A stretch of 64,000 nt of DNA from an uncultured bacterium (GTDB taxonomy: Bacteria; Patescibacteriota; Minisyncoccia; Moranbacterales; UBA2206): contig CAIZXS010000012.1 of the NCBI GenBank assembly GCA_903937035.1, positions 18,314 through 82,313 of the forward strand. Reading direction: 5' to 3'. Positions 40,263-63,405 of the stretch are shown here, piece after piece (the first letter of the stretch is position 1; every line of letters begins with the position of its first letter). The position numbers and the translations under genes are program-made. The notes under the pieces were generated by a model. The model was not told the DNA's origin, did no database searches, and saw only the letters and a program-made list of their open reading frames with translations.

Positions 40263-40336
40263 TGCGCCCTGAGGGACTCGAACCCCCGACCCTCTGGTCC
40301 GAAGCCAGATGCTCTAATCCGCTGAGCTAAGGGCGC
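40263..40336 (-). tRNA. tRNA-Arg (anticodon TCG as read)
   Basis: Minus-strand cloverleaf: GCGCCCT/AGGGCGC acceptor, D-arm GCTC..GAGC, anticodon stem TCTGG/CCAGA with loop CTTCGGA, T-arm GGGGG TTCGAGT CCCTC. Confidence 0.8.
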
Positions 40337-40365
40337 ATAGACACTTTCTTATTTCGTTTCTAAAA

Positions 40366-40437
40366 TTTTCAGGGGGGTGGCTAGAGAGAATCGAACTCTC
40401 GACGCAGGTACCACAAACCCGAGTTTTACCACTAAAC
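40366..40437 (-). tRNA. tRNA-His (GTG) with encoded G-1
   Basis: Acceptor GTGGCTA/TAGCCAC with extra 5' G opposite discriminator C. Anticodon stem CGGGT/ACCTG, loop TTGTGGT. T-arm GAGAG TTCGATT CTCTC. Confidence 0.8.
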
Positions 40438-40462
40438 TATAGCCACCACTCTGAAAACTTTA

Positions 40463-40535
40463 ATTTTTCCTGTGCCCTCACCAAGATTCGAACTTGGGAC
40501 CATCTCCTTAAGAGGGAGCTGCTCTACCAACTGAG
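40463..40535 (-). tRNA. tRNA-Lys (CTT)
   Basis: Acceptor GCCCTTA/TGAGGGC, D-arm GCTC AGTTGGTA GAGC, anticodon loop CTCTTAA, T-arm CCAAG TTCGAAT CTTGG. Confidence 0.8.
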
Positions 40536-40544
40536 CTATAAGGG

Positions 40545-40640
40545 CGAAACCATGAAACATGTAGCATAAAACATGTAACAGGATAAATTATACATCAAAT
40601 CATGCTTTTGTTACATGCTGCATGTTTTATGTTTCATGAG
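40545..40640. repeat. Imperfect ~30-bp-arm palindrome in tRNA operon spacer (catgaaacatgtagcataaaacatgtaaca ... tgttacatgctgcatgttttatgtttcatg)
   Basis: Arms are near reverse complements with permuted inner 7-mers. Shares the atgaaacatgtaaca motif with two coding regions (7117, 62739). Confidence 0.6.
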
Positions 40641-40644
40641 AAAG

Positions 40645-40717
40645 TGCGCCGGGCAGGAATCGAACCTGCGACCAATAGCTTAGAAGGCTACTGCTCTATC
40701 CACTGAGCTACCGGCGC
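40645..40717 (-). tRNA. tRNA-Arg (TCT)
   Basis: Acceptor GCGCCGG/CCGGCGC, anticodon stem GTAGC/GCTAT with loop CTTCTAA, T-arm GCAGG TTCGATT CCTGC. Confidence 0.8.
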
Positions 40718-45863: not shown

Positions 45864-45935
45864 TGGCCCCATCGTCTATCGGTTAGGACATCAGGTTTTC
45901 ATCCTGAAAAGAGGGGTCCGACTCCCCTTGGGGCT
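45864..45935 (+). tRNA. tRNA-Glu (TTC), complete; T-loop TCCGACT (C at position 54)
   Basis: Acceptor GGCCCCA/TGGGGCT, D-arm GTCT ATCGGTTA GGAC, anticodon stem TCAGG/CCTGA with loop TTTTCAT, T-arm AGGGG TCCGACT CCCCT. Confidence 0.8.
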
Positions 45936-45961
45936 ACAGGCCCAAAATTGGTGTGGGGCAA

Positions 45962-51583: not shown

Positions 51584-51656
51584 TGTCCTTAGCAGGAATC
51601 GAACCTGCGACCTTCTGGACCGCAACCAGACGCTCTATCCACTGAGCTATAAGGAC
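51584..51656 (-). tRNA. tRNA-Arg (anticodon GCG as read)
   Basis: Acceptor GTCCTTA/TAAGGAC, D-arm GCTC AGTGGATA GAGC, anticodon stem TCTGG/CCAGA with loop TTGCGGT, T-arm GCAGG TTCGATT CCTGC. Confidence 0.75.
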
Positions 51657-52524: not shown

Positions 52525-52616
<92 letters not shown>

Positions 52617-52792
52617 AACGAAGTGAATAAGGAGAGGAGCAAGCCAACTGCTTGGCTTGCGTGAGGGATTTGAAAGACGGAGCGCGGCGGCGCGTTGAAA
52701 AGTAATAATATTACTTTTCAAGGGTCGAGCAAATTTTTAGCAAAAAATTATGCGTGACCAAATCTTCATTTTGTTCTCAATCTTAGTATACT

Positions 52793-52880
52793 GGAGAGAT
52801 GGCCGAGTGGTTTAAGGCAACAGTCTTGAAAACTGTCGTACTGTTAAAGGTACCGTGAGTTCGAATCTCACTCTCTCCGC
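52793..52880 (+). tRNA. tRNA-Ser (TGA), long variable arm
   Basis: GGAGAGA acceptor, anticodon stem ACAGT/ACTGT with loop CTTGAAA, variable arm, T-arm GTGAGTTCGAATCTCAC. Confidence 0.8.
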
Positions 52881-52925
52881 CTTCGCTAAAGCTTCGACGG
52901 ATAAATCCGCAGTCTTAAATCTATT

Positions 52926-52999
52926 CGGGGTGTAGTATAGTGGTAGTACGCAAGGCTGGGGGTCTTGTAGTCGGAGTTCAATTCTCCGCACCCCGACCA
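52926..52999 (+). tRNA. tRNA-Pro (GGG), CCA encoded
   Basis: Acceptor CGGGGTG/CACCCCG, D-arm GTAT AGTGGTA GTAC, anticodon stem CAAGG/TCTTG with loop CTGGGGG, T-arm CGGAG TTCAATT CTCCG, ends ...ACCA. Confidence 0.75.
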
Positions 53000-56374: not shown

Positions 56375-58279
56375 ATGTCTCTTAATGAAATACAAAACGA
56401 ACTATATAAGAAGGAGCCAAGCAAGGAATTGCTGCAACATGAAAAAAGTGAATTTGATGCAAGCTCGATAGTCTTTTCTTCCCCTGAAAAAAGCGGACTG
56501 CCCAAAGATGAATGGTTGGAAAAAGAGGATGTGATTGAAAAGGAAGATAAAAAGATTGTAAAAAAGGGAGCGCTTATCGTGGGCGGATTGCTCTTAGTGA
56601 TTGCAGTTGTGGTGGGATTCTATAAGATAAAGCAATCTTTTTTCAACGCTGATCGGCTTTCTGTCTCCTTGGAAGGACCGGCAGAAGTTAAGAGTGGCAA
56701 TCTAGTTACCTATGAAATAAAATATAAAAATGACAACCGCGCTGATCTGAAAAATGTCACGCTGAAGATGACTTATCCCGAGGATTTTAAGCCTGAAGGG
56801 AATGCTGATTTCAAGAGCGAGGGCACAATGGTTAGTGTGCTGAAATTTGCCGACATCAAGGGGCAGAGCGAAGGAAAGATAGTTTTTAATGGACGAACCT
56901 ACAGTCCCAAGGGGAACTTGATTAAGATTAAAGCGGAAATTTCCTATATGCCGTCAACAGTCAGTACGACTTTTGTGGTGGGGGATCAATTGTCAATTGG
57001 TGTTATTTCAGCTCCAATAGCCCTTGAGGTAACGGCGCCACAAAATATTTCGGCTAATGACGAAGTAAATTATTTGATTAATTATAAGAATGAAGGCGTA
57101 GAGAATTTTGAAAATATCCGGGTTAAAATTGATTATCCTGAACAGTTCACGTTTACCAGCTCTGATCCTAAAGTGTTTGAAGGAAATAATATTTGGTATA
57201 TCGGTAGCCTGCCTGGTGGGCAAAGTGGAAAAATTGTAGTGGCCGGAAGAATGTCTGGCAATCGGGATGAGGTTAAGTTGGCCAAAGTAACAATCGGTGC
57301 GAATAATAATAGTGTATTTGTCAGCTATAACGAAGAGAGTGCTAGGACAAAAATAATATCCTCACCGCTAGTAATCAAGCAGACAGTCAATGGCTTGGAT
57401 AATCTAACTGCAAATGCTGGTGATAATTTGCGATTCAAGATAGATTATAAAAACGAAGGACCGTTGGGACTTCGTGATGTAATCGTGACCGAACATATCG
57501 ATAGTACGGTTTTAGATTATTCAACATTGGACACGGATGGAGGGGCATATGATGCTAACAGTAAAACAATCACTTGGAAGGCCTCGGATCATAAAGAATT
57601 AAAAAATCTTGCTTCGGGCCAGGGTGGTACAATATCATTCATAATAAATATCAAAGGGGTTATTCCTGTGGCAAGCGGTAATGATAAAAATTTTGTTATT
57701 TCCAGTTTGGCAAAAATTGATAGTCCTGACATTTCAACACCTATTAGCATGAATAAGGTTATCTCTGGGAATAAGATGGATACTAAGCTTAATTCCAAGT
57801 TAGTCTTGGATGTGAAGGGTTACTACAATGATGCCAAAATTCCCAATACTGGACCAGTCCCGCCTAAAGTCTCACAAGAATCAACCTATACCATGCATTT
57901 CATCGCATCGAACGTTTCCAATGATATTGAAGGCGCAAAGGTGGAAGCGGTTCTACCTACATCAGTCAGTGTGACGGGAAAATTTTTCCCTGAAGGATCT
58001 CCAATATTTTATAACGAAAGAACTAATTCTATTGTATGGAATATTGGCAATTTAGAGGCCGGTGCCGGAATAGTGTCTCCAGGGAAAGAAGTAGCCTTTC
58101 AGGTGAAAATCAAACCTTCTGTCGACCAGGTTGGGCAAGAAGCGCCACTACTCAATGAATCTGTTTTTTCCGCTAAGGATCTATTTACAGGAGAGAATAT
58201 ATCTGCTAAGGTTCCAGGTAAAAGCACGCGACTCTATGAGGATGATGGTTTAGTGGGAAGTTATAGGGTATCCAATTAA
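56375..58279 (+). CDS. Bitopic surface protein with repeated DUF11/CARDB-like beta-sandwich domains
   Basis: N-terminal TM 'GALIVGGLLLVIAVVVGFY'. Repeated units of type 'LSVSLEGPAEVKSGNLVTYEIKYKNDNRADLKNVTLKMTYPEDF' / 'LEVTAPQNISANDEVNYLINYKNEGVENFENIRVKIDYPEQF'. Confidence 0.55.
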   Translation: MSLNEIQNELYKKEPSKELLQHEKSEFDASSIVFSSPEKSGLPKDEWLEKEDVIEKEDKKIVKKGALIVGGLLLVIAVVVGFYKIKQSFFNADRLSVSLEGPAEVKSGNLVTYEIKYKNDNRADLKNVTLKMTYPEDFKPEGNADFKSEGTMVSVLKFADIKGQSEGKIVFNGRTYSPKGNLIKIKAEISYMPSTVSTTFVVGDQLSIGVISAPIALEVTAPQNISANDEVNYLINYKNEGVENFENIRVKIDYPEQFTFTSSDPKVFEGNNIWYIGSLPGGQSGKIVVAGRMSGNRDEVKLAKVTIGANNNSVFVSYNEESARTKIISSPLVIKQTVNGLDNLTANAGDNLRFKIDYKNEGPLGLRDVIVTEHIDSTVLDYSTLDTDGGAYDANSKTITWKASDHKELKNLASGQGGTISFIINIKGVIPVASGNDKNFVISSLAKIDSPDISTPISMNKVISGNKMDTKLNSKLVLDVKGYYNDAKIPNTGPVPPKVSQESTYTMHFIASNVSNDIEGAKVEAVLPTSVSVTGKFFPEGSPIFYNERTNSIVWNIGNLEAGAGIVSPGKEVAFQVKIKPSVDQVGQEAPLLNESVFSAKDLFTGENISAKVPGKSTRLYEDDGLVGSYRVSN

Positions 58280-59454
58280 TGTTCAGTCTAATAGCCAGAA
58301 AAAATACCGCGAGAAGCGGTCAAATTAAGACAAGAAACGGAGTAATTAATACCCCGTTTTTTATGCCTGACGCGACGCGTGGTTTTGTGAAATCGCTAGA
58401 TAGGGATGATTTGCTTGAAGCGGGCGTGGAACCGATGGTGGTGAATACCTATCATTTATACTTGCAACCCGGAACGGAACTTATTAAAAATGCCGGAGGC
58501 ATCCATCAATTCATGAATTGGCATGCGCCGCTTCTTTCTGACTCAGGCGGTTATCAAGTCTTTTCTTTGATTCATAAAAATCCCAAGATGGGAAAAATTA
58601 CTGATGAGGCTGTTATTTTCAAATCTCCCTTGGACGGATCAACGCATATAATTTCACCAGAAAAATCCATTCAAATTCAATTTGACCTGGGCGTTGACAT
58701 GATGGTGGTACTGGACGACGTGCCACCGAATAGTTACACAAAAGAAAAAATCAAAGACGCTGTCGAGCGGACTGTTCGTTGGGCAGCTCGTTGCAAGATT
58801 GAGTATAAAAAGCAATTAAAAAAGAGAAAAATATCAAAGGCAGATCGTCCATTAATTTTTGGTGTTATTCAAGGTGGAGGACATGCTGACCTGCGAAAAT
58901 ATTGCGCCGAAAAGCTTGTTGAGATTGGATTTGATGGATATGGCTTTGGCGCGCGGCACGTTGACACAGATGGAAATTTTATGGAAGACGTTGTGCGCGA
59001 GACCGCCAAGCTTATTCCGGAAAATTCTTTACGTTTTGCCTTGGGCGTTGGAACACCAGCTGATATTGTTAAGTTTACCAATTGTGGTTGGGATATGTTT
59101 GATTGTGTGATTCCAACAAGAGAGGGGAGACACGGACGGTTGTTTATAAGAAAGATTGCAGAGACGCAATTTATTGCGTCTAAAAAAACAAACAAAGACG
59201 CGATAAAGCGCGTCTCTACGATGGATGATGATTTCTATGAAACGATTAATATTAATAACGAAAAATTCAGAGAAGACTTTGGACCAGTGGACGCCGCTTG
59301 TGATTGCCAGCTTTGCAAGAATTATTCGCGAAGCTATCTTCGTCATCTCTTTGCCATGAAAGACCCAATCGCCATGCGACTCTCAGCAATTCATAATTTG
59401 AAATTCTATATGGATTTGATGGAAGACTTGCGGGCGGAGATTATAAATAAATGA
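58279..59454 (+). CDS. tgt: Queuine tRNA-ribosyltransferase (tRNA-guanine transglycosylase)
   Basis: 'TRNGVINTPFFMPDAT', 'NTYHLYLQPG', 'GVIQGGGHADLR', Zn site 'CDCQLCKNYSRSYLRHL'. Confidence 0.9.
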   Translation: MFSLIARKNTARSGQIKTRNGVINTPFFMPDATRGFVKSLDRDDLLEAGVEPMVVNTYHLYLQPGTELIKNAGGIHQFMNWHAPLLSDSGGYQVFSLIHKNPKMGKITDEAVIFKSPLDGSTHIISPEKSIQIQFDLGVDMMVVLDDVPPNSYTKEKIKDAVERTVRWAARCKIEYKKQLKKRKISKADRPLIFGVIQGGGHADLRKYCAEKLVEIGFDGYGFGARHVDTDGNFMEDVVRETAKLIPENSLRFALGVGTPADIVKFTNCGWDMFDCVIPTREGRHGRLFIRKIAETQFIASKKTNKDAIKRVSTMDDDFYETININNEKFREDFGPVDAACDCQLCKNYSRSYLRHLFAMKDPIAMRLSAIHNLKFYMDLMEDLRAEIINK

Positions 59455-59469
59455 CATTTTTAAATTTAG

Positions 59470-59790
59470 TGGGGGAGCTTTCCTGAAAGACACTCCCCCG
59501 ACGGAGTTTGATCGCGCTGAAGGTTTCCTTAACCAGCTGAACTTTCTCAGCTGATCACATCAGAACAGGCCCTGGTTTTTCACGGGTCTTACAAAGACTC
59601 GTCGAGGGACTTTGCCCTCGATCTGCTCCAAAATGCGTAGCTCATCGGCTAGCAAATAAGCGGTCAGAGACCCTAGCTCACAATCACACTCTATATTTAT
59701 ACAATCAGGTTTTCTACGTGTAGTCAAGTTGGACATTGCCCGGTTCTCTTGACTTTTTGCTTTAATTGTGCTATTATTAAAAATCGTACG
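59470..59790. ncRNA. GC-rich, ORF-free ~320-400-nt segment with multiple hairpins; candidate structured non-coding RNA (identity unknown)
   Basis: No ORF >=60 aa on either strand across 59455-59884. Local GC clearly above the AT-rich background. Hairpins gggggag...ctccccc, gagggactttgccctc, agctga..tcagct, ggtt..aacc. Confidence 0.35.
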
Positions 59791-59884
59791 TGGACAATTT
59801 ATTTGTTCGAATTGTCTCGCTAAATGGCCATTTTTTGCTACTTTTCGTAGCTTTATTTTTTAACAACTTTGGGAGAAAAGTTCA

Positions 59885-61132
59885 ATGAAAAGATTGATTC
59901 TGGTATGTTTTCTCGTGGCGACTATAGTTGTGTTTTACTCTTCTGGTGTTTTTGCAAAGAGTGAGATTGTCAGCAGTATTAATCTGGTCAATAAAATCCA
60001 AGATATTGCCGTGGACGGCAATGGCATTATTTATGCCACGACCGATTACAGCAGTAACGCCTGGGATGGAGATGTTTTTAAGCTCCAGCTCAGTGGGAAT
60101 CAGCTGCAAAAAATTTCCTCTTTGCGTGGAAATGGATTCCGTAATCGGGATGCTTTTTCTGAAATGTCCATTTTGAACGGGAGGGGCTATGTGCTCTCAA
60201 CCTACTCTGAATCTTGTGGAATTGTGGCGGATTTGAGTACCATGACAATCGCCGTGCCCATTGGTATGGAATGTCAAATAAAGGACTCAAAAATTATTAC
60301 CACTGATGGCGTTGATATTTATATTGGTGGTGGAATGTTGAGTGGTGGAAAGACTGTGCCCTATGTGCGGTCATATGTCCCACTTTCCAATGGAGAGCTG
60401 AATTATCAGAGCGCCGTTACTCCCGAAGGAATTCCTGAGAAAGTATTTTTTCAGCCAGAAAAGAAGTATCTCTTCCTGGCGATGGGAAATGCTGGGATCG
60501 GGGCTTGGGACACAACCGATCCAAGAGCTCTCTGGAAGTTGGGTCAGCCGCGAGACACTTTCTACACTGCGGATGGCTATGATTATTTCAAAAGAGCCAT
60601 CGATATGGTGTCGGAAAATCAATATGTCTATGCGCTGGCTGGGGATGATCAATGTTGGAGGGGTGTATTGGCGATCATTAGTTTGACCGAACCAAGCTAT
60701 GATGAGTATTGGTTTCGGTTCGCTAATCAGGTTGGTGGGCTGGATATTGATGACGGACCATTATTTTTGAAAAAAAGTGGTAATCGAATTTTTATCGCTA
60801 CAAAAACATCCAGCATTCTCGTTGTGGATGTTTCAGACGCGATGAAGCCAAAGCTTATCGAGACAATCTCAATCATGGCAACAGATTTTGAAGTGATTGA
60901 GGATAAGCTCATTGTGGCCAGTGACAACCTTTTACAAGTTGTGCAGTTGGCCGGTGAAAAAATCGTTGGCGACATCAATGATGATGGCAAGGTCGATCTG
61001 GCTGATGCAATTTTGGCATTACAAGTCACGAGCGGAAAAAGCGTGACTGTTAAGGTCGAAAATGGTGTCAATGGAAAAATCGGCCTCACGGAGGCTGTGT
61101 ATGCCTTGCAAAAAACTGTAGGGCTGCGTTAG
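59885..61132 (+). CDS. Secreted protein with C-terminal dockerin-like Ca-binding repeat pair
   Basis: Signal peptide 'MKRLILVCFLVATIVVFYSSGVFA'. C-terminus 'GDINDDGKVDLADAILALQVTSG ... NGVNGKIGLTEAVYALQKTVG' fits the dockerin D-x-N-x-DG-x-V-x-x-x-D repeat. Confidence 0.5.
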   Translation: MKRLILVCFLVATIVVFYSSGVFAKSEIVSSINLVNKIQDIAVDGNGIIYATTDYSSNAWDGDVFKLQLSGNQLQKISSLRGNGFRNRDAFSEMSILNGRGYVLSTYSESCGIVADLSTMTIAVPIGMECQIKDSKIITTDGVDIYIGGGMLSGGKTVPYVRSYVPLSNGELNYQSAVTPEGIPEKVFFQPEKKYLFLAMGNAGIGAWDTTDPRALWKLGQPRDTFYTADGYDYFKRAIDMVSENQYVYALAGDDQCWRGVLAIISLTEPSYDEYWFRFANQVGGLDIDDGPLFLKKSGNRIFIATKTSSILVVDVSDAMKPKLIETISIMATDFEVIEDKLIVASDNLLQVVQLAGEKIVGDINDDGKVDLADAILALQVTSGKSVTVKVENGVNGKIGLTEAVYALQKTVGLR

Positions 61133-61138
61133 AAAAAA

Positions 61139-61175
61139 GGACCATCCGGGAGATTTCCCGGATGGTCCTTTTCTT
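61139..61175. terminator. Bidirectional rho-independent terminator (ggaccatccgggagatttcccggatggtcc)
   Basis: 12-bp perfect stem, 6-nt loop, A-run upstream and T-run downstream. Sits between convergent genes. Confidence 0.85.
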
Positions 61176-61990: not shown

Positions 61991-62127
61991 AACTCTAGTC
62001 TCCCTAGTGTATTGTTAATATGCTTTATTTCTAGCGATAATTTAGTAATAGATATTAATAGCACAAAACAAAAGCTTTGTAAAGAGCGCGGTTTGCCTTT
62101 TTTGCTTATCTGGCTTAGATTATATAT

Positions 62128-63405
62128 ATGAAAAAAATTGAACTTTTAGCGCCGGCTGGCGACCTAAATAAACTAAAATACGCCCTAGCCTTTGGCGCGG
62201 ACGCCGTTTATTGCGGTGTGCCGGATTTTTCTTTGCGGGTGCGGATCAATCGGTTTTCGGATAATGATTTAACTAAAGCTGTGGAATACGTGCATGCGCG
62301 CAAAAAAAAGATTTATGTGACGCTGAATATCTATGCTCACAATCAGCATTTGGAAAAAATCAAAAAGCACATTCAATTCTTGAAAAAGTTGAAAGTTGAT
62401 GCGATTATCGCTAGTGACCCAGGGATAATTCTCCTTATCCAAAAATATTGGCCAAAGTGTGAAATTCATCTCTCTACCCAAGCCAATGTGACCAACTTTG
62501 CGGCGGTAGAGTTTTGGAAAAAGCAGAGTGTGAAAAGAATTATTCTCGCGCGAGAAGTTTCACTCTCGGAGATTAAGGAAATCAAGAAGCAAACGAAAAA
62601 TATTGAGCTGGAATATTTTGTTCATGGCGCGATGTGCATGAGTTATTCCGGGCGCTGTATTTTGTCCAAATGGATGACGGACCGCAGTGCCAATCTGGGT
62701 GATTGTTCGCAGCCGTGTCGGTGGGAATACCATGAAACATGTAACATGAAACATGAAACAAAAAATGCAGGGGGCGATAATTTCCTTAGTATGAGTGTGA
62801 TTGATGATCAAAAACGCTATGGGATGGATGTGGAGGAAGATGCACACGGGACATATTTTTTTAATAGTTATGACATGAATTTGCTTCCGCACCTTTCTGA
62901 TTTACGTGAGGCGGGCGTGGAGTCATTCAAGATTGAAGGACGAGCCAAAAGTGCCTATTATCTAGCAATTGTGACACGAGCCTATCGTGCCGTGCTTGAT
63001 GCCTTGGAAAATAATCTGCCAGTAAAAGAAACCAAAGCGATCATTAAAAAGCAAAAAATCGAACTGGATAACTTAGTACACCGTGGATATTCAACCGGCT
63101 TTCTTTTGGGGCGAGAGCCGGAGCATAATTTTGAAAATAAAAATAATCCGGCTAAATTTCAATTTGTGGGCGAGGTGAGGGGAGTGGAAGGAAATCTTAA
63201 TATTTTACGCGTGCACAATCACGTTGCTATTGGAGACAAATTGGAAGCAATAACACCGAAAGAAAACATCAAGCTTAAAATAAAAAGGATTTTAGATTAT
63301 AATAAAAATGAAGTGGCAGTGGCTGATGGCGGGCACAATAGGGAGTACTATTTTGAATTTGATAAAAAACTGGAAAGCGGAAGTTTGGTGCGGAAAGTGA
63401 TCTAA
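62128..63405 (+). CDS. Peptidase U32 family protein (RlhA/TrhP-like RNA-modification or collagenase-like)
   Basis: 'MKKIELLAPAGDLNKLKYALAFGADAVYCG' and U32 signature 'EYFVHGAMCMSYSGRCILS'. Confidence 0.85.
   Translation: MKKIELLAPAGDLNKLKYALAFGADAVYCGVPDFSLRVRINRFSDNDLTKAVEYVHARKKKIYVTLNIYAHNQHLEKIKKHIQFLKKLKVDAIIASDPGIILLIQKYWPKCEIHLSTQANVTNFAAVEFWKKQSVKRIILAREVSLSEIKEIKKQTKNIELEYFVHGAMCMSYSGRCILSKWMTDRSANLGDCSQPCRWEYHETCNMKHETKNAGGDNFLSMSVIDDQKRYGMDVEEDAHGTYFFNSYDMNLLPHLSDLREAGVESFKIEGRAKSAYYLAIVTRAYRAVLDALENNLPVKETKAIIKKQKIELDNLVHRGYSTGFLLGREPEHNFENKNNPAKFQFVGEVRGVEGNLNILRVHNHVAIGDKLEAITPKENIKLKIKRILDYNKNEVAVADGGHNREYYFEFDKKLESGSLVRKVI

Follow-up and report, generated by a model that had tools for sequence, protein, structure and literature searches.

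The segment between tgt and the 415-aa gene

The window analyzed here is a 64-kb stretch (64,000 nucleotides, nt) of contig CAIZXS010000012.1 from an uncultured bacterium, a metagenome-assembled genome of Candidatus Moranbacteria (Moraniibacteriota, Patescibacteria/candidate phyla radiation, CPR). Contigs identical to the source contig are present in several ENA, JGI, and Logan assemblies. The contig is part of ENA analyses ERZ18650788, ERZ18650346, and ERZ27313467, the first two from BUCK21 samples SAMEA6872901 and SAMEA6872903. The segment studied, 59455-59884, is flanked by tgt (58279-59454; Pfam TGT, E 2e-116; nearest relatives in genomes of the same kind) and a gene encoding 415 amino acids (aa) with no assigned function (59885-61132), beyond which come a minus-strand 248-aa gene and the gene (62128-63405) for a U32-family peptidase. 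The segment consists of two separate units, a GC-rich element at 59469-59694, which we regard as a candidate gene for a structured RNA, and the predicted promoter and leader of the 415-aa gene at 59745-59884 (Table 1). It is seen as two units because related genomes hold the element and the 415-aa gene with its leader separately.

A preliminary description, made from the letters of this DNA, had called the segment conspicuously GC-rich and proposed a structured non-coding RNA (ncRNA) of a housekeeping kind. The strings that it quoted were all found where it had placed them. The compositional contrast applies to the left part, since 59469-59694 has a GC content of 51.3% (z 2.1; top 1.8% of 226-nt windows) and 59455-59700 one of 47.6% (91st percentile in the window), but not to the whole segment, which at 41.9% holds an unremarkable rank in a window of 40.7%. 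The remainder, 59700-59884, is AT-rich (34% GC).

Table 1. Positions of the features discussed in the text (window coordinates unless a relative is named).
Feature	Position	Strand	Remarks
Candidate structured small RNA	59469-59694	minus	about 226 nt, 51% GC; P1 and P2 around a multi-helix junction, separate 3' hairpin
Closing helix P1	59691-59679 with 59516-59504	minus	12 base pairs (bp), joins the 5' and 3' ends
Helix P2	59674-59668 with 59528-59521	minus	extends P1
Hairpin UGAUCAGCUGAG-AAAG-UUCAGCUGGUUA	59530-59557	minus	the "agctga-gaaagt-tcagct" of the preliminary description; best supported helix
Hairpin CGAGGG-CAAAGU-CCCUCG	59603-59620	minus	stem retained in 4/4 sequences
3' terminal GC-clamp hairpin GGGGGAGU...GCUCCCCC	59471-59499	minus	begins 16 nt past the tgt stop codon
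Putative RNA promoter, conserved upstream block	59695-59735	minus	TTGACT at 59727-59722, TG at 59707-59706
58-aa open reading frame (ORF)	59560-59736	minus	called as a hypothetical protein gene in public annotations; judged spurious
Promoter and leader region of the 415-aa gene (predicted)	59745-59884	plus	L015 5523-5668; L053 925-1078; L057 45-203
Sigma-70-type promoter TTGACT-17-TATTAT with TG (predicted)	59749-59777	plus	10/12 consensus positions
Leader (predicted)	59784-59884	plus	about 100 nt; start near 59784 inferred from the -10 hexamer
Leader hairpin GACAATTT...AATTGTC	59793-59816	plus	conserved
Terminator-like hairpin	59837-59851	plus	T-run to 59861, then ribosome-binding site; reported by scan

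The locus was compared with 39 tgt loci from GTDB genomes and with 11 more loci, which were collected through homologues of the 415-aa gene (L053-L057) or of tgt (L059-L065). Homologues of the element were searched for with nhmmer, blastn, and a covariance model, the latter with default filters and with filters off. In the loci searched, the covariance model finds only the window, L015 (JBAQUL010000012, whose tgt is 82% aa identical to that of the window), L058 (JGI Ga0172379_10091584, retrieved with a 20-mer from the element), and a diverged copy in L014. No further copy was found in the 64-kb window even with filters off, so that the element is single-copy there. The JGI metagenome scan gave the element on one contig only, and no match was found in viral contigs (pattern scans) or phage records (BLAST).

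The gap that separates tgt from the U32 gene contains, in the window and L015, the GC-rich element together with the 415-aa and minus-strand genes. In L058 the element is the sole content of this gap, neither the 415-aa nor the 248-aa gene being present; L053 and L057 have the 415-aa gene and its leader, with the element absent. The element is a unit independent of the 415-aa gene, and a link between the two is rejected on the basis of these arrangements. The U32 gene follows tgt directly in L016-L018, L020, L060, and L065. L063 has a 285-aa minus-strand gene in the gap, and L064 an unexplained gap of 274 nt. The tgt-U32 gap is a site of frequent gene gain and loss; its contents range from nothing to the RNA element alone, the element with the 415-aa and 248-aa genes, a diverged element with a truncated 415-aa-like gene, and the 285-aa gene.

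Conservation and predicted fold of the element

The element is 93.4% identical to its counterpart in L015 and 89.4% identical to that in L058. Over the last 222 nt of tgt, third codon positions are 70% and 53% identical, respectively; first and second positions are 89% and 89% identical in L015 and 89% and 93% in L058. The third codon positions of the 415-aa gene are 67% identical in L015 (the gene is absent in L058). Compared with the third positions of tgt, the element is better conserved with a Fisher p of 1e-6 for L015 and 3e-10 for L058, and a 59-nt block is invariant, including the third codon positions of the ORF that overlaps it. Because faster-evolving neutral sites bound the conserved tract on both sides, the comparison argues for purifying selection on the nucleotide sequence of the element rather than for a recent recombination block.

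The predicted fold of the element is also beyond chance. The minimum free energy (MFE) of 59455-59700 (246 nt) is -81.8 kcal/mol on the plus strand (z -4.5) and -89.5 kcal/mol on the minus strand (z -4.8), and none of 200 dinucleotide shuffles reached the native value on either strand, so the hairpins pointed out in the preliminary description are real. The whole 430-nt segment folds with z -3.8. The RNA itself, taken on the minus strand, has z -3.8 in L015 and -4.95 in L058. The consensus fold of the window, L015, and L058 contains 73 pairs, with 96% of cells paired, and in it P1 and P2 are predicted to enclose a junction of about five hairpins.

Individual helices tolerate change in ways that preserve pairing. 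In the hairpin at 59530-59557, one pair is G-C in the window, G-U in L015, and A-U in L058, and three more pairs are altered on one side with pairing retained; L014 has at this site a 12-bp hairpin of other sequence. The hairpin at 59603-59620 shows a G-C to G-U change in L015 when read on the minus strand, which corresponds to an A-C mismatch on the plus strand, and in L014 its loop differs. In the GC-clamp hairpin, the outer G5/C5 stem is invariant and the apical part varies freely. Among the three close sequences, 10 pairs are altered on one side with pairing kept and 2 on both sides.

The covariance model, built from the window, L015, and L058, matched L014 over its full length with 17.9 bits when filters were off, the match being on the minus strand in the syntenic position immediately past tgt. 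Background matches in other loci (81 kb and 25 kb), also with filters off, reached at most 12.9 bits, and the two shown per listing covered short hairpins, most of the model being deleted. The order of hairpins is kept in L014 and the stem sequences are different. P1 was left unaligned there by the model, and by eye a shorter GAGCUU/AAGCUU pairing could take its place. With L014 added, 21 pairs are altered on both sides, a number reached by none of 500 shuffles (slid controls gave at most 3). The L014 copy may be decaying, because a truncated copy of the 415-aa gene stands in place of its 5' flank. L014 has the tgt most similar to that of the window (94% aa identity) yet the most diverged downstream region, which points to a probable recombination breakpoint at the 3' end of tgt.

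These results bear on the possibility that nothing functional lies here, i.e., that an ordinary spacer shows hairpins by chance and conservation through very recent common ancestry. We consider this improbable. It could draw on the fact that only three close sequences are available and that their covariation is not significant against controls; however, no shuffle out of 200 folded as well as the native minus strand in two of the three genomes and only one did so in the third, flanking neutral sites are 53-70% identical against 89-93% for the element, and a diverged copy with the same order of hairpins occupies the same site in L014.

Coding does not account for the conservation either. The preliminary description had reported no ORF of 60 aa or more, and the longest one in the segment is indeed the 58-aa ORF on the minus strand. 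That it is a real small-protein gene and the source of the conservation is very improbable in our view, although it has been called by gene finders in several assemblies and P0130, a 104-aa Arg/Ser-rich protein of the representative library with a twice-repeated C-x-N-D-ECDC-x-x-GS-RH-AY (more loosely, C-x-N-x-ECDC-xx-GS-xx-AY), is matched marginally (E 4.6e-4) by the best conserved part of the RNA in translation (CINIECDCELGSLTAY). Among 5.8 billion proteins the ORF has no homologue except itself, and neither the ORF nor any open stretch of the six frames belongs to a Pfam family. An exhaustive phmmer search with the ORF returned two marginal matches, both to internally repeated proteins, which inflates scores, and these were judged spurious; we judge the P0130 match to be a coincidence, though an unexplained one. 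Substitutions at codon positions 1/2/3 number 0/7/3 against L015 and 2/4/3 against L058, mostly at the first and second positions, and 8 of the 58 residues differ from L015. The invariant 59-nt block is conserved at all third positions too, the stop codon moves (TGA in the window and L015, TGC in L058), and the inferred transcript start falls downstream of the ATG. The ORF thus carries no coding signal. Read-through of TGA, a selenoprotein, and genetic code 25 were considered and rejected, since the frame past the TGA is not conserved and long ORFs under table 11 show the standard code.

A third view is that the element is a palindromic or mobile repeat acting at the DNA level, such as a miniature inverted-repeat transposable element (MITE), a repetitive extragenic palindromic (REP) sequence, or a Rickettsia palindromic element-like sequence, or else a relic in a hot spot of gene flux, its hairpins being a by-product without RNA function. 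Like such repeats, the element is rich in hairpins that fold well on both strands, is patchy among close relatives, and sits in a variable gap, that between tgt and the U32 gene, which gains and loses genes. P1 resembles inverted repeats near the ends of the element, and other short GC-rich palindromes occur in these genomes. Unlike them, it is single-copy in the window by the unfiltered covariance search, was seen on one metagenome contig and in no viral contig or phage record, and occupies the same site in 4/4 genomes with no flanking direct repeat in the repeat scan. Its conservation, far above that of neutral sites on both flanks, is unexpected for a decaying relic. We therefore hold this view to be quite unlikely.

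The palindromes just mentioned deserve description in their own right. In the window, tgt contains a variable in-frame insert (59135-59233) made of two short palindromes (AGACGCAATTTATTGCGTCT and AGACGCGATAAAGCGCGTCT). Its homologues (P0011-P0028) have unrelated inserts at the same spot, namely "SNFQF..NSNVKI..DKKNADA", "STSPPTPLLSKERVAE", and "KSTGSKSPLGRALRAC", the last of which P0016 carries at its C-terminus as well. Downstream of tgt, L016, L059, and L062 contain further GC-rich palindromes, one example being CCTCTCC-CTTA-GGGAGAGG. These inserts and palindromes resemble small mobile palindromic elements with in-frame insertion, comparable to the Rickettsia palindromic elements.

Probable strand, putative promoters, and the neighboring leader

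The minus strand is favored for the RNA, as a preference and not as proof; the preliminary description had not anticipated this probable placement. In all three close sequences the MFE of the minus strand is lower than that of the plus strand by 7-14 kcal/mol, and the consensus energy is -83.7 kcal/mol on the minus strand versus -71.5 kcal/mol on the plus strand. The window and L015 differ by five stem substitutions, and for all of them it is only on the minus strand that pairing survives, via G-U. The model match in L014 is on the minus strand, and a T-run (UAAAUAUUUUUUU) follows its terminal hairpin on the same strand.

Similarity among the window, L015, and L058 reaches about 40 nt upstream of the fold and ends about 10 nt beyond a TTGACT, as a promoter would; this block is the putative promoter of the RNA. 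The hexamer-like blocks TTGACT and TG-TTGTATAAAT are invariant in the three sequences, and the spacer has five substitutions in L015. Two candidate -10 hexamers can be read, TTGTAT (59704-59699, spacer 17) and TATAAA (59701-59696, spacer 20). At the other end, the GC-clamp hairpin is probably both the end of the RNA and a convergent terminator shared with tgt.

The structure could instead belong to the plus strand, as a long structured 3' untranslated region (UTR) or terminator region of the tgt mRNA that protects the message or stops read-through, with no separate RNA gene. The element does lie directly after the tgt stop codon, its plus-strand fold is beyond chance in each of the three sequences (z -4.5, -2.9, and -4.3), a plus-strand transcript could terminate at a hairpin near 59722-59755 and the TTTTTG after it, and the promoter scan found no canonical promoter on the minus strand. 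Nevertheless, we regard this as unlikely, because the minus strand folds more stably by the above margin in every genome, the stem substitutions become A-C mismatches on the plus strand, and both the model match and the T-run of L014 are on the minus strand. Most relatives have a simple hairpin or the next gene right after tgt, so the element is not needed there, and L058 is without the 59722-59755 hairpin yet keeps the block up to TTGACT.

The final third of the segment, which the preliminary description had not recognized as such, belongs to the neighboring 415-aa gene, as its predicted promoter and leader, and is no part of the RNA. The promoter is kept upstream of the homologues in L015, L053, and L057, and the leader could be aligned in four genomes, whose 415-aa proteins are 58-84% identical. 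L053 and L057, with 58-59% aa identity in this protein, retain promoter and leader sequence corresponding to 59759-59864 of the window. The stem of the terminator-like hairpin shows a U-A to C-G change in two genomes, whose proteins are only 58-59% identical. The leader, which has no Rfam match, may be a transcription attenuator or a small leader RNA. The extended -10 sequence TTGTGCTATTATTA (59766-59779) recurs in inverted orientation at 62053-62066, upstream of the minus-strand 248-aa gene, and its counterparts in L053 and L057 are TGTGCTAAGAT and TGTGCTAAAAT; judging from these, TGTGCTAnnAT may be a typical extended -10 of the lineage.

Relation to known RNAs and interpretation

A housekeeping RNA, as the preliminary description had suggested, is not supported. 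Rfam 15 at gathering thresholds reported only nine tRNAs in the whole window, all outside the segment. A scan at E<=10 of 59300-60000 (701 bases) and 59460-59700 (241 bases) gave nothing credible; SNORA75, IMPDH, and ceN65 appeared as chance matches, all far under the gathering score. ARAGORN found no tRNA or tmRNA in 59300-60000. The RNase P, transfer-messenger RNA (tmRNA), 6S, and signal recognition particle (SRP) models named in the preliminary description gave no match at gathering thresholds or at E<=10, and the element, found in only a few close relatives, is not distributed like a universal RNA. The nine tRNA genes lie at 40263-40717 (a cluster of four, minus strand), 45865-45936, 51584-51656, and 52525-52996 (a cluster of three, plus strand).

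Likeness to the individual housekeeping RNAs is limited. The element shares with RNase P RNA, tmRNA, and SRP RNA a compositional contrast with the genome, but it is too short for the first two. RNaseP_bact_a and RNaseP_bact_b, with their P4 helix of CR-I and CR-V, gave no covariance match at the gathering score or at E<=10, tmRNA is rejected for want of a tRNA-like domain (ARAGORN) and of an Rfam match, and the small and large bacterial SRP RNA models of Rfam, with their domain IV (helix 8) motif, did not match. The GGCAAAGUCC of the element bears a short chance resemblance to the CR-I motif of RNase P, GGAAAGUCC; this resemblance was rejected, as the loop is not kept in L014 and a CR-V-like string lies on the other strand. 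A CsrB-like decoy of GGA motifs was likewise rejected, since only one GGA motif is conserved in the alignment.

The comparison with 6S RNA (SsrS, RF00013) is closer. The element resembles it as a stand-alone, non-coding unit of comparable size, with about 190 nt inside a closing helix plus a 3' hairpin, in the pairing of its 5' and 3' ends in a long closing helix, and in the fast sequence change between lineages. It differs in that its predicted fold is a five-way junction versus a rod with a central bubble, and in being limited to a few genomes at the tgt locus. There is no match to RF00013 or its clan even at E<=10, and single-sequence and consensus folds, which have a closing stem, otherwise give a multi-branch junction and not a rod (closing stem, large central bubble, apical stem), so 6S RNA is rejected as an identification; by analogy, a protein-binding mode like that of 6S RNA is plausible.

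Orphan ncRNA motifs such as raiA, ROOL, GOLLD, OLE, and HEARO were found by comparative genomics. The element is like these in architecture, as a GC-rich, multi-helix, intergenic sequence in an AT-rich genome with no obvious cis target, and in being known only from conservation and predicted structure. In contrast to them, it is far scarcer, with three close copies and one diverged copy, is smaller than the large classes, and shows weak covariation; the Rfam models of raiA, ROOL, GOLLD, OLE, and HEARO do not match it. We found no relevant description of ncRNAs in Moranbacteria or CPR/Patescibacteria, or of a Patescibacteria 6S RNA, in the literature searches made.

Taken together, we lean, with somewhat better than even confidence, towards 59469-59694 being a functional gene on the minus strand for a structured ncRNA of about 226 nt. 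The proposal of a structured ncRNA in the preliminary description therefore survives for this part, given its fold relative to shuffles, its conservation above neutral flanking sites, and an ORF without coding signal, and fails for the rightmost 140 nt. A lineage-restricted structured small RNA (sRNA) of a new family, limited to a small clade of Moranbacteria, is plausible; the evidence is fair as to selection and fold, and thin as to covariation, strand, and function.

Several observations weigh against this reading. The two compensatory pairs of the three close sequences were matched by 112 of 500 shuffles and are not significant, and the count of 21 pairs hangs on a single distant sequence whose alignment came from the model, and is thereby skewed in favor of the structure. 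Folding of the plus strand is likewise good (z -2.9 to -4.5), with G-U pairs in its consensus as well. The putative promoter is non-canonical, with either a -10 lacking A at position 2 or T at position 6, or a spacer of 20 nt, and the consensus promoter scan did not report the minus-strand block. The terminal hairpin has an A/U-mixed tail in place of a canonical U-tract in the window, a U-run being present only in L014. This genome does use U-tract terminators, judging from a perfect 17-bp palindrome (AAAAGGACCATCCGGGA / TCCCGGATGGTCCTTTT) at 61135-61172 between the convergent 415-aa and 248-aa genes, which, with A- and T-runs on its sides, has the appearance of a canonical bidirectional intrinsic terminator. 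In addition, the element is found in only 3-4 genomes, with at least 12 related tgt loci lacking it, and the locus is recombinogenic.

If the element is indeed an RNA gene, it would be transcribed from the minus strand, convergently with tgt. Transcription would start from the promoter-like block 59695-59735, near 59692-59694, and the RNA would end just past 59471, at the GC-clamp hairpin 59499-59471, which would also close the tgt transcript. Its ends are predicted to pair in the 12-bp P1, extended by P2, around the five or so hairpins. With tgt convergent, the RNA would have no gene behind it on the minus strand and would therefore not be a cis-regulator, riboswitch, or leader. We would expect a trans-acting protein-binding or scaffold RNA, and less so an antisense sRNA with a pairing seed, because both ends are sequestered and long single-stranded stretches are few; this step, which considers the architecture only, is the weakest one. 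As a bolder and rather unlikely extension, the element may be the founding member of a new CPR family of complex-folded RNAs, with a closed five-way junction of about 190 nt and a 3' clamp, a dedicated protein partner or a part in catalysis or ligand binding, and fast-diverging orthologues (like the L014 copy) so far unseen in other Moranbacteria.

The stakes are modest, in that the element is known from few related genomes and there is as yet no pointer to any one function. The public annotation of a 58-aa hypothetical protein at this site is corrected here. CPR bacteria combine very small genomes with unusual ribosomes and dependence on a host, and a conserved single-copy multi-helix RNA without an Rfam family, as the element may be, is a concrete target for metatranscriptomic and structural follow-up.

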